The notes under the pieces: model-generated
The model's input: the letters and a program-made list of their open reading frames with translations, nothing else
Databases searched by the model: none
Told to the model about the DNA's origin: nothing
Made by a program: the position numbers and the translations under genes
Part shown: positions 8,575 to 51,097 of the stretch, piece after piece
Numbering within the stretch: the first letter of the stretch is position 1
How the letters are laid out: each line of letters starts with the position of its first letter
IMG/VR virus record: IMGVR_UViG_3300033076_001341
Span: 63,940-127,939 of that record
Origin: a virus
Taxonomy: Duplodnaviria > Caudoviricetes
Length of the DNA stretch: 64,000 nt
Direction: 5' to 3' (one strand)

Positions 8575-8943
8575 TTAAGCTGTCAAAGCGTTCTTGAACT
8601 CAAAAGAGTCCGCATTAAATGCAAACCGCTCGATAAAAGCAGTTATCTCTACAGCATCCGTAATGAAATACTCATAGTAGGTCTCAAGAAGCTTACGCTC
8701 TTCAGCAAACTTGCGTCCGTTAGCACCTGGTTTTCTCAGCGGTGTAAGGTCACCGTTAGAGTCCAACTTGGGTAAGAATTGAAAGGTCTCTTTCTTTTCT
8801 TTAGATACAATTGCTAAAGCTTTCAGCTCGGTGTCGAAGATGACTTCGTTGTAAGGACAAGAAGTTTCTACGGGGATCAGTCGGAAACTGGGTTTTTCAT
8901 TCCAGCTTGATGTGATCAGCATCATTGATTTTTCAGAAGACAT
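8575..8943 (-). CDS. hypothetical protein
   Basis: 122-aa ORF in the replication operon. Confidence 0.7.
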   Translation of the reverse strand: MSSEKSMMLITSSWNEKPSFRLIPVETSCPYNEVIFDTELKALAIVSKEKKETFQFLPKLDSNGDLTPLRKPGANGRKFAEERKLLETYYEYFITDAVEITAFIERFAFNADSFEFKNALTA

Positions 8944-38396: not shown

Positions 38397-38481
38397 TGGC
38401 GCAGGCGACCGGAATCGAACCGGTACTTGTAATAGTCTTTTGCAAGGACCATTACTGGGATACTCAATACCCAACACCTGC
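38397..38481 (-). ncRNA. atypical tRNA-like RNA with a 9-bp anticodon stem (loop contains GCA)
   Basis: Acceptor GCAGGTG/CGCCTGC-G-CCA; T arm ACCGG-TTCGATT-CCGGT; GTAATGGTC/GACTATTAC stem; non-canonical D arm. Confidence 0.7.
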
Positions 38482-40289: not shown

Positions 40290-40371
40290 TGATGTAGACA
40301 GGAATCGAACCTGCACAACTTGCGTTACTGCCACCTGAAGACAGCGCGTCTACCAATTCCGCCACTACACC
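40290..40371 (-). tRNA. trnL: tRNA-Leu(CAG)
   Basis: GGTGTAG/CTACATC-A; D arm TGGCGGAATTGGTAGACGC; CTGTC-TTCAGGT-GGCAG; long variable arm; GCAGG-TTCGATT-CCTGT. Confidence 0.9.
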
Positions 40372-42441: not shown

Positions 42442-42470
42442 GATGTTTCGTTATTAGGTACATGGTAATC

Positions 42471-42704
42471 CCCTCTGCACTCAAGTTGTAATCCTCGGCT
42501 ATACCGTAGACATATATTCTAGCTTCAGTCTGCAGTTTTAAAACGCTGTCTCTAGATTACAACTTGCTCACCCTTGGGAGACTGATTAAAGACTGCTATC
42601 TGCCGCAGTATGCTTACACTTAATCAGTGTGGTTTCACATCTCAAGGTTATCTACATTGGAGAGCCCTGAGAAGTCTTCATATCCACGTGAGAATGGTGC
42701 ATTA
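42471..42704 (-). ncRNA. twister ribozyme (P1-type) with a 107-nt insertion
   Basis: UAA-UGCA-CC ... P4 CUCAC/GUGAG, L4 UCCCAAGG, P5 AAGUUGUAAUC/GAUUACAACUU, UGCA-GA-GGG; T1 CCC:GGG, T2 CC:GG; P1 weak. Confidence 0.7.
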
Positions 42705-42760: not shown

Positions 42761-42866
42761 TAGTCAGGACAGGATTCGAACCTGTAATCATGGATATGGT
42801 ATCTACGGTGGATTACCCGCCTCACCTCACCACTTATCCTTGCGTCTACCATTCCGCCACCTGACT
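42761..42866 (-). ncRNA. 106-nt tRNA-Leu-like RNA with an extended, anticodon-less arm
   Basis: AGTCAGG/CCTGACT-A; Leu-type D arm TGGCGGAATGGTAGACGC; ACAGG-TTCGAAT-CCTGT; GGATA..TGGT/ACCATATCC long arm. Confidence 0.75.
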
Positions 42867-43285: not shown

Positions 43286-43738
43286 TTAGATGTACATGGA
43301 AACGATCTTGTTAACGAACTCTTCAGAGGTAGTAGAACATTCTGCGAAAGCAGCTTCAACAAGGATGTTGTTAGCAATGTCTTTAGTACAAGGTACACTT
43401 TGACATCTGGCAGATACACTTATATTTGATGGATCATACCTATAACGAGTGGTGCTTGCACTTGTGTAAACATTCTCTTTCTCGTACTTTTTGTCGAATT
43501 GCTCGCGCTTTTTCTCAAACTTATCGATCAAGTCGTTAAGTTCATTACGTTTGGCGCTGATGTCTTCAATCAGTTTAGTTAACTCTTTGAAGTCTTTAGA
43601 TTCTTCAAGTTTGCTAGTCTTCGCTTTTCTTGCTTCGTCATTGGATTTTTCAATCCTCGCTTGTACCTGCCCTGCAAGTGCTTCAGCGAGCGTTTTGGTG
43701 ATTTTAATACCTGTGGTTTTCATGGATGTATTTTTCAT
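43286..43738 (-). CDS. hypothetical coiled-coil protein
   Basis: Start at ATG 43738 or 43723. Confidence 0.65.
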   Translation of the reverse strand: MKNTSMKTTGIKITKTLAEALAGQVQARIEKSNDEARKAKTSKLEESKDFKELTKLIEDISAKRNELNDLIDKFEKKREQFDKKYEKENVYTSASTTRYRYDPSNISVSARCQSVPCTKDIANNILVEAAFAECSTTSEEFVNKIVSMYI

Positions 43739-43795
43739 ACCTGCATTACTGCAACGCACTAGACCTAAATGCTGTTTATACTCGTCTAGTCGAGT
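43736..43795 (-). ncRNA. pistol ribozyme
   Basis: ACUCG-ACUAGA-CGAGU-AUAAA-CAG-CAU-UUAGG-UCUAGU-GCG-UUGCA-GUAA-UGCAG-GU-AUG: P1, 6-bp pseudoknot, AUAAA linker, GCG, P3, GU cleavage site, P2 CAU/AUG. Confidence 0.85.
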
Positions 43796-43809
43796 TGGTT
43801 AATCAATGT

Positions 43810-44137
43810 GGTGCATTAAAGTAATTCAATTGTAATACAAGGCTTGTTGATCTATCTTGTATTTCGACACATTCATTTCCCCATAGTGTCTGATGAGGTA
43901 ATGGAGAATTATTACTTGCTGAGTAAACCCAGCATCGTCCATTTTTTTTATCTAGCACCTTTATCCTGTCTTTGCATTAGCTACTGCAAATGAGAATTGG
44001 GTTACAATTGTTTACTACACTCTGCATTCAGTTGTACTATGTAGGATTTGAACCTAACTGTTTCCACTACTTACATGCTTTACAGCATTGAGCCTAGTAC
44101 AACTGCCTACCCTTGTGAAGTAGGTTGTGATGCATTA
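43810..44137 (-). ncRNA. twister ribozyme with two possible cleavage strands (P1-type, or permuted with a long P1)
   Basis: P4 CCUAC/GUAGG, L4 UCACAAGG, P5 AGUUGUACUA/UAGUACAACU, UGCA-GA-GUG; UAAUGCAUC at 44137 and UAAUGCACC at 43818; AGUAA/UUACU and CAAUUGUAA/UUACAAUUG stems. Confidence 0.75.
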
Positions 44138-44920
44138 CTTATTTGATTACCCGACAAGCGCGGGGTGTGTTTCACTTTCCCTTCAAGAACTAGAGAGAGA
44201 GTAAAGAACATACATAGAGAGAGAGAACAATACTCTAGAGAGAGATATACTAACTCTACCCTATAAGAGTAACACTACTTATCACTACCCAATCATGCTA
44301 CCCAAACGATCTACTCGTACATACGAAACAATCGTAAGAGATGTCTCTCGTACTAGTTGTTAGCCATCTAATGCAACCGCCCCTTGAGACGCAATAGTGC
44401 AGTTGTGCTGTTGGTGTAAAGGGTAAGAAAGGGTGTGTTGGGATGTCACTCTCGCTCTATCACGCTCACTAATAATTAGTTAGCGTTATGATTTTTACTG
44501 CGTAAACTCGACGGATGCCGTATATAGACGGATACTGTCCGGTAAATCCACGTAGTGGACTCAACACTGCACAAGTAAACTCAATTAAGTGAGTGGGGCG
44601 AAGCCCCACGAACCTAGATGCGTGTAACATTCTTGACGTGTACGAGTCCGAGACTACACCGACGAGCGGCTGTGCAGGGTAGTGAGTCGTGAAACAGTCG
44701 TTTTCTAAGTGATTGATAATCAATGACGGAGTCAGGATTTCCCTAGAGAGAGTATCAAGACAAGTCTACTCTCCTGGAACGTACTCCGACAACAGGCTGC
44801 GCCGGGTAGGTGACTCGACTGTTCCGCTTGCGCGGCGCGACAATGGGTGCTGCCGTCAGGTTAAAAGAAACCCGAACGCAGTGAGGACCTTTTTGATAGA
44901 GACGAAAGAGAAGGGAGCGA

Positions 44921-50721: not shown

Positions 50722-51097
50722 GGGGATGAAATGGATTCGACAGCATTGTCGGGGACATGTACACATGCAGAGAGATGATACTGTTCTCTATAATCACGTA
50801 TTACACTAATTAAACGGCAACGTAGAATTATCTGAAATGACTTTTGAAGACGCTATCGCATTCGTTGGTGAATACGAAATGGCAGCCTAAGTCGCGGGGA
50901 GTCATCCCTGGGAACAGAAAATGACACACGAGTATCACGGTTCCTGGACCTAAACCAGGTGGTGGAATCTGACTTCGGTCAACCCTACGGTGCAGACCAT
51001 ATCGTTGACATCAACGAAATGATCAGTACTAAGCATGTAAGATGTACATATCTGCTGCTTTGACTGGACGGCGGTTCGATACCGCCCATCTCCACCA
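50722..51097 (+). ncRNA. ssrA: tmRNA; predicted tag (A)GNVELSEMTFEDAIAFVGEYEMAA* at 50816-50890
   Basis: 5' GGGGATG...GGATTCGAC; 3' GGCGG-TTCGATA-CCGCC-CATCTCC-ACCA; G3:U70 pair; TAAAC before the resume codon; tag ends AA-stop. Confidence 0.92.

Follow-up and report, generated by a model that had tools for sequence, protein, structure and literature searches.

The region described here lies in a 64,000-nt stretch of viral DNA (hereafter the window), which forms the second half of a 127,939-bp record of an uncultured phage (~128 kb, rated complete by CheckV). Locus coordinates refer to the minus strand throughout. The untranslated leader of a small gene carries, as read from the DNA, an array of RNA elements in the order P0 hairpin, twister, a module termed X, the stump of a second twister, pistol ribozyme and open reading frame (ORF). 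The pistol ribozyme (43735..43795; Rfam RF02679, 57.7 bits vs a gathering score of 34.5) has its predicted cut, G43740/U43739, one base ahead of the AUG (43738) of the downstream 150-aa ORF. It is conserved in the related loci L127, L078 and L147, with one loop substitution noted across L127/L147. At gathering threshold, Rfam models run over the whole window returned this pistol, a tmRNA and several tRNAs. Searching the 801-nt region against GenBank phages with blastn gave no match, and Pfam gave nothing informative for six ORFs around the array. Upstream of the array lies a CT/GA-rich low-complexity tract (44190-44290), preserved in kind, with differing sequence, in the relatives L127 (2030-2110) and L147. 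Elsewhere in the window, a full-length tmRNA is located on the plus strand (50722-51097, 93 bits; ARAGORN-predicted tag peptide GNVELSEMTFEDAIAFVGEYEMAA), and tRNA-like genes with insertions of 35-90 nt in or near the anticodon arm were found at 42761-42866 (minus strand), 40290-40371 and 38400-38481; these genes exceed the Rfam tRNA threshold and recur next to ribozymes in L019, L041 and L127.

Reading of the minus strand located every feature of the original prediction at the position given for it. The twister starts with an upstream substrate strand, UAA-UGCA-U-C (44129..44137), with a predicted scissile bond at U44137/A44136, followed by an ACAA linker, P4 and loop L4 (44106..44128), which are assigned from sequence, alignment and covariation. 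P4 is formed by CCUAC (44124-44120) and GUAGG (44110-44106), and L4, UU-CAC-AA-GG (UUCACAAGG), bears the 5' halves of T1 and T2. P5 (44029..44105) consists of an 11-bp stem (CAGUUGUACUA/UAGUACAACUG), in which covariation was found, and a 55-nt interior; the predicted T-loop hairpin, UAGG-UUCAAAU-CCUA, is indeed present inside it, beside the P5 3' strand (44056-44042). In L110 the same P5 interior belongs to a twister with a different core. The window copy continues with AA-UGCA-GA-GUG (44018..44028), comprising the P2 3' strand, the invariant GA and the T1 3' strand, and with U-AGUAA-A (44011..44017), a P1 3' strand of the RAGUAA type with AGUAA at 44016-44012. Next come X (43827..44010), its constant 3' flank AAUUACUU (43819..43826), which is also the P1 5' strand of the downstream site, and a second substrate strand, UAA-UGCA-CC-ACA (43807..43818), with a candidate scissile bond at U43818/A43817. 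UAAUGCA is thus found twice, at 44137-44131 and 43818-43812, as had been claimed, and the segment between the two candidate cut sites (A44136 to U43818) measures 319 nt. UUGAUUA (43800..43806), a possible strand of a P3-like closing stem, complements UAAUCAA (44149-44143) in the loop of the P0-like hairpin CUUGU-CGGGUAAUCAA-AUAAG (44138..44158).

By its architecture and by covariation among 64 family members, which both bear out the original twister call, the core is that of a type-P1 twister with a long P5, one of a large family carried by phages. A pattern over L4, the P4 3' strand and the base of P5 found more than 120 IMG/VR loci among the matches listed, nearly all of them with one common layout, and 64 distinct members were parsed and aligned. 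The structure consisting of P1, P2, P4, P5, T1 and T2 was paired in 91.9% of cells vs 26-52% with slid partners, the percentage for P4 being partly imposed by selection because the parser demanded at least 4/5 P4 complementarity; P1 pairing took no part in member selection. Changes on both sides were seen in 19 of the 30 pairs, and the observed values were reached in 0/500 shuffles. Covariation in this set of distinct members supports the predicted P1, P2, P4, P5 and T1 pseudoknot. P1 shows 5-6 pair types per position and P4 four covarying pairs, with ~12 fully Watson-Crick helix variants and three more with one G-U wobble. In T1 both strands change together, 50 members having CCC/GGG and 14, like the window copy, CAC/GUG, with no mixed forms; a third variant, CCA/UGG, is present in the second twister of L128. 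For T2 the complementary bases are present, but C17:G34 is invariant in 64/64 members, so that no covariation arises.

The UAA that comprises the U-A scissile dinucleotide and the following A, directly 5' of P2, is invariant in 64/64 members (44137-44135 in the window). P2 occurs in the forms UGCA/UGCA and UGUA/UACA (columns 14:174 are CG in 60 members and UA in 4). We also observed perfect covariation between two bases that flank P2, the one that follows its 5' strand (column 16) and the one that precedes its 3' strand (column 172). These columns are CG in 49 members and UA in 15, with zero mismatches in the 64, which implies, on this covariation, a fifth P2 pair or a base triple; in the usual drawing of twister the C after the P2 5' strand is given to T2. 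Columns A32 A33 G34 G35 and G124 A125 G126 are invariant and all present in the window copy, and we take the AAG of L4 and the G-A step before T1 to be the active-site purines, by analogy with Osa-1-4.

In the window core every invariant position is present, P2, T1, P4 and P5 are intact, and the sequence is near-identical to the cores of L140 and L143. It scored 94.8 bits (E ~6e-22) against the family covariance model, in which it is itself one of the 64 training rows, and the model found exactly two copies in the phage, 44145-44010 and 42704-42463 (twister-1), both in the window. Since twister-1 has CUCAC/GUGAG in P4 and CCC/GGG in T1, the differences in the present copy are real compensatory changes, as the original prediction held; they were inherited, since L140 and L143 have the same P4 and T1. 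In twister-1 (42463-42704, minus strand) an insert of 107 nt with two hairpins separates L4 from the P4 5' strand; the orthologue of this twister in the closest relative, L078, is without it, but inserts of this type (ending in ...UUAAUCAG-CUCCCAAGG) recur in many other loci.

The Rfam twister models found nothing in the window, whether the cutoff was the gathering threshold, E<=1 or E<=10, and likewise nothing in 13 family loci, in a 161-nt slice with the shortest P5 or in the L128 array. That these models score no family member is probably due to the long P5 insert. In the family, P5 always spans ~40-170 nt, with a 10-bp base conserved in sequence (CAGUUGUAAU/AUUACAACUG) and an interior that is freely swapped among members, while P5 is found in ~1% of annotated twisters (PMC6154101). 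Among 185,579 bacterial and archaeal species genomes the family is nearly absent, being found in five MAG contigs, three of <5 kb and two of >80 kb, at least two of them from lakes. No description of a long-P5 phage twister family was found in the literature searched, the coverage of which was incomplete.

The downstream substrate strand had been predicted to be brought in by a long P1 enclosing about 165 nt. The helix exists, but it belongs to module X and is not a device of this ribozyme. X is closed by CAAUUGUAA (44010-44002) pairing with UUACAAUUG (43835-43827) over 9 bp, with 166 nt enclosed, and came to light when first the 3' half of the CAC/GUG subfamily and later a word from the enclosed loop were searched for. 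This ~185-nt structured module is >90% identical in seven other IMG/VR contigs (L128, L130, L136, L137, L143, L144 and L145), and its consensus fold has four hairpins. Copies lie at 43827-44010 (minus strand) in the window, L128:4373-4574, L143:1557-1762 and L145:3000-3199; the flanks differ among the 8 phage contigs, across which the 3' half is nearly invariant. X is preceded in most relatives by a second conserved structured element, a spacer of ~95 nt. Rfam gave no match for X, the preceding spacer or the second twister. An apparent ORF of 37-51 codons within X was rejected, since homologues carry indels of 4 and 6 nt that shift the frame yet preserve a hairpin, and X is accordingly non-coding. 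X may be a mobile module, an RNA carried as cargo or a so far unrecognised ribozyme.

The flank AAUUACUU is invariant in every X copy and is identical to the P1 5' strand of the complete second twister in L128. The closing stem and this flank are both retained in L130, L144 and L145 without a following twister strand, which is why the ~165-nt loop is not attributed to the ribozyme. Comparative reading of the predicted long P1 resolves it into the X closing stem plus a P1 sequence (UUACUU/RAGUAA) common to a sub-lineage. In the window, AGUAA (44016-44012) has no upstream partner and pairs with UUACU (43824-43820); L140, L143 and L145 carry AAGUAAAC or GAGUAAAC as P1 3' strand, paired with UUACUU or UUGCUU. 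The AGUAA/UUACU pairing is thus explained by the one P1 sequence, UU(A/G)CUU with RAGUAA, that the twisters of the sub-lineage have. Cross-complementarity as a general rule of tandem twisters was considered and rejected, since it is confined to this sub-lineage.

Relatives of the locus reveal where the second strand comes from. In L128, L136 and L137 a first twister (T_a) is followed by the 95-nt spacer, X and then AAUUACUU-UAAUGCACCACAACUCAC..., the start of a second, complete twister (T_b). T_a and a complete T_b are joined in L143 by another hairpin, X', with the same stem, and X lies downstream of T_b, while L130, L144 and L145 have no twister after X; the L145 junction, GUG-GAGUAAA-X, is the same as that of the window. 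The UAAUGCA 7-mer alone is non-significant (13 matches in the window vs 8.5 expected). The longer window sequence UAAUGCACCACA, however, matches the start of T_b in L128, L136, L137 and L143 in 12/12 bases, and together with the same module and the same AAUUACUU flank this shows that the downstream copy is homologous and not due to chance. As judged by this alignment, the downstream strand is the first 12 nt of T_b, cut off in the linker just before P4, and the ancestor of the locus was a tandem array, T_a-X-T_b, which relatives have kept in full. By the same comparison, T_a at the window has lost its own P1 5' strand and T_b has been reduced to 12 nt. Intact tandem twisters are common (12/138 twister 3' ends), and true orphan substrate strands are rare (~2/138).

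Truncation is an ordinary fate in the subfamily, since partial dead copies occur in L129 and L131. Both keep the P4 3' strand, P5 and the 3' half, and both miss the substrate strand and L4; the segment missing from L129 begins exactly at the cut-site position. The locus is also a mosaic, with a P5 interior matching L110, a core matching L140/L143 and an X matching L145. L110 itself has a near-identical P5 interior, a canonical core and the same upstream hairpin. These comparisons indicate that the arrays evolve by swapping of modules (P5 interiors, X), tandem duplication and truncation.

The two candidate cut sites are in different states. At the upstream site the 3' arm of the P0-like hairpin abuts UAA, so that a P1 5' strand is missing, and 5/6 P1 pairs are marked as non-canonical by the family model. 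This is unusual but not unique, since 11/64 members have two or fewer contiguous P1 pairs, and P1 is reported to be dispensable for twister cleavage (PMC6154101, citing its reference 31). The upstream strand does match the core at the covarying position (U44130 with A44027, U:A). The downstream strand has a strong P1 and the family-majority CC, but docking it in the window core produces a C.A at columns 16:172, a combination seen in 0/64 members. UAA, UGCA for P2 and the cytosine for T2 are found in both strands. As originally predicted, each can pair with the one P2 3' strand, and at equal predicted stability: the ensemble energy with either P2 forced was -96.5 vs -96.7 kcal/mol, so that the fold has no clear preference for the upstream strand.

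Both constrained folds retain the X helix and the 7-bp P3-like stem UAAUCAA/UUGAUUA, which is also part of the MFE and centroid folds, with a whole-region z-score of only -1.6. The stem lacks covariation because it is known from a single lineage. P0-like hairpins with a GUAAUC(A) loop were also observed directly upstream of some other members (44138-44158, minus strand, in the window; L015, L025, L063 and L110), and the hairpin covaries, since its stems differ between members. Hairpins with a GUAAUC loop lie just upstream of 9/114 members vs a background of 1.2%, an enrichment of about six-fold; P0 is a known optional stem of twister (PMC6154101).

A segment of 346 nt (43799..44144) is present in one relative and absent from another. 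L127, the closest relative by the downstream protein (77% amino-acid identity), keeps the pistol and is without the block 44144-43799. The metagenome contig L147 carries it with 0 differences in 346 nt, while its ORF has 16 differences in 453 nt and its upstream region is ~57-60% identical; between the window and L147 the block differs at 0/346 positions vs 17/517 for the adjacent pistol and ORF (Fisher p = 2e-4). The tract of identity (44157-43638), however, reaches through the pistol and 100 nt into the ORF, and on its upstream side it ends abruptly, which points to a recently shared segment. We therefore rejected L147 as an independent confirmation of the two-strand layout, which counts as a single known evolutionary instance. 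Three further candidates were also rejected: L146, a chance 20-mer match; an IMG/VR pattern of UAAUGCACC followed by the pistol start, with 5 matches, all by chance inside coding sequence; and the idea that UAAUCAAAU/AUUGAUUA are inverted repeats at the ends of a mobile insert, because some of the left arm falls outside the indel and this arm is part of the recurring P0-type hairpin loop.

The explanation that we favour, with moderate confidence, is that the array-descended, intact long-P5 type-P1 core is predicted to cut its upstream strand, and that the downstream stump is there by descent. The core would fold during transcription on its cognate upstream strand, with a 5-bp P2, T1, T2, P4 and P5, and would cut U44137/A44136 without P1, while the pistol would cut G43740/U43739. 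The two cuts would separate a ~397-nt structured RNA, made up of core, P5 and X, from an mRNA with almost no leader, and processing of the downstream gene's leader by an active twister together with the pistol is the best supported role suggested by the layout. The stump may dock in the same core via the 5+9-bp helix, in a type-P3-like topology, but its cleavage at U43818/A43817 would be optional and is a candidate only. Some features of the stump point away from a mere scar. The breakpoint of T_b falls exactly in the 3-4-nt T2-P4 linker and leaves exactly a substrate strand. Behind the stump come 7 nt complementary to the upstream hairpin loop, and the upstream site has lost exactly its P1 strand. 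These complementary losses at the two sites give more of an impression of design than would be expected of a random remnant. Against a functional second site stand the single origin, the C.A mismatch and the relatives, which have either a full ribozyme or nothing at the position.

The core and its array resemble several known systems. Type-P1 twisters, reportedly the class of Roth et al. 2014, run in the order P1, U-A cut followed by A, P2, C-rich T2 strand, P4, L4 with CCC and AAG, optional P5, P2 3' strand, GA, GGG and P1 3' strand. The window copy resembles this type (RF03160; Osa-1-4, 4OJI; PMC6154101) in having the same order of elements from P1 through the P1 3' strand, the double pseudoknot and the optional P0 hairpin upstream. 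It differs in the long P5 with a sequence-conserved base, which every member of the phage family has, and in lacking an upstream P1 partner while carrying an orphan second substrate strand downstream. Clusters of self-cleaving ribozymes near phage genes are established, with a largely elusive function, and processing of multi-gene transcripts has been proposed as their role (PMC6765202). As in such clusters of twister, hammerhead, pistol and hatchet ribozymes, the twister here adjoins a pistol in the leader of a phage gene, and relatives show twister-twister and twister-hammerhead-like (L067) combinations or a nearby hatchet (L110); unlike in these clusters, one member of the window array is reduced to its substrate strand alone. 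In L067 the hammerhead-like motif, CUGAUGAG...CGAAAC, directly follows the twister, and in L110 the hatchet ribozyme (8591-8727, 81.6 bits) lies 1.4 kb upstream of it.

An alternative that we regard as unlikely, and that in outline had been put forward in the original prediction, is that the one core cuts both strands in turn, excising a 319-nt RNA (core, P5 and X) that is circularised by an RtcB-type host ligase or by reverse cleavage. The ends of this RNA would lie side by side in a nicked twister, and the expected junction would be UUACUUU joined to AAUGCAUCACAA. The shared UAA, UGCA and T2 cytosine and the isoenergetic P2 pairings fit this reading, and in the excised product the 5+9-bp helix would fix the 3' end and P2 the 5' end, as in a nicked ribozyme. 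It is also consistent with the UURCUU/RAGUAA sub-lineage, in which a twister's P1 3' strand is complementary to the P1 5' strand of the twister after it (window, L128, L134 and L143) and whose arrays resemble repeats of one unit, and with the extent of the block present or absent between relatives, which spans roughly cut site to cut site. No paper on a twister with two substrate strands was found in the literature searched (coverage incomplete). Against this reading, the layout is a single evolutionary instance whose copy in L147 lies within the recently exchanged tract. Where the window has the stump, relatives carry either a full second twister or none, and the C.A that the downstream strand would form falls at a position without a mismatch in any of the 64 members. 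Searches of the phage genome with ligase profiles found neither RtcB (PF01139) nor an Rnl2-type ligase (PF09414); for the Rnl1 profile (PF09511) the controls were silent too. A longer-than-unit DNA copy of a circle was rejected, because the left flank, AAAUAAG, fails the required match to AUUACUU.

The full sequence of events of this unlikely alternative, in which one core cuts two strands and the refolded 319-nt nicked twister closes into a circular phage non-coding RNA with X, is a shade less likely again. In the engineered Tornado design an RNA placed between two twisters is joined by RtcB, and retrozymes and viroid-like RNAs are natural ribozyme-bounded circular RNAs. The locus resembles these systems in that two twister-type sites bracket a structured RNA and in that the predicted ends, a 5'-OH and a 2',3'-cyclic phosphate, would be RtcB substrates. 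In these systems a separate ribozyme serves each site and circle formation has been shown, whereas at the locus one core would serve two sites, in a DNA phage that is without RtcB or an Rnl2-type ligase. A ribozyme-bounded circular RNA has a ribozyme at each end, and neither the sequence nor the family model reveals a second core at the downstream site.

To a second alternative we assign the same low probability as to the first: the core of T_a and the strand of T_b would form a hybrid, permuted type-P3-like twister that cuts only at 43818/43817, ahead of the pistol, with UAAUCAA/UUGAUUA as closing stem and the upstream strand as a vestige or a competing regulatory decoy. This bears on the circularly permuted arrangement of the original prediction, which survives in part: use of the downstream strand would indeed give a type-P3-like topology, while the loop of the supposed P1 is the independent module X. 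Type P3 is a known natural permutation of twister (PMC6154101), the closing stem recurs in all the folds described above, and the strong P1 and majority CC of the downstream strand stand against an upstream strand essentially without P1. If the downstream strand is used, the window would share with the type-P3 twisters env9 and env22 a loop-closed P1 and a P3-like stem closing a chain that begins and ends between T2 and P4. In natural type-P3 twisters there is one substrate strand and the P1 loop is short, whereas in the window P1 is capped by the 166-nt module, a competing cognate strand is kept 5' of P4, and the P3-like stem is without comparative support. The C.A mismatch with the window core weighs against this reading as well, as do the upstream strand, perfectly conserved within the subfamily and the first to form in transcription, the lack of covariation and modest z-score of the closing stem, and the fact that this stem borrows a P0-type hairpin loop that recurs elsewhere without a downstream partner.

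That the block is an inert relic, a recombination scar of a mobile or decaying ribozyme array with no cleavage at all, we consider the least probable, because, although the block is dispensable (as in L127), the family yields dead fragments, the upstream P1 is missing and the locus is a mosaic (L110-like P5, L140/L143-like core, L145-like X), every invariant core position and helix is intact, P1 is reportedly no prerequisite of cleavage (PMC6154101), and the block differs from L147 significantly less than the adjacent sequence, for which a recently shared tract could equally account.

If both sites are cut, the locus would provide the first natural twister-bounded RNA of a DNA phage suited to circularisation, carrying the highly conserved X, and such cutting would bear on the old question of the role of clustered ribozymes in phages. 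A circular RNA, if it forms, would be a natural counterpart, with one ribozyme, of the engineered twister-flanked circular RNA systems, and it would possibly be a vehicle spreading the twister-plus-X unit between phages. The locus represents a natural experiment, in which a core is without its own P1 strand and a neighbouring stump supplies one, and it offers a direct test of strand switching by a twister and hence of a shift of the cut site by 319 nt. Since the Rfam twister models miss the long-P5 family, which comprises more than 120 loci among the matches listed, ribozyme censuses of phage genomes undercount twisters.
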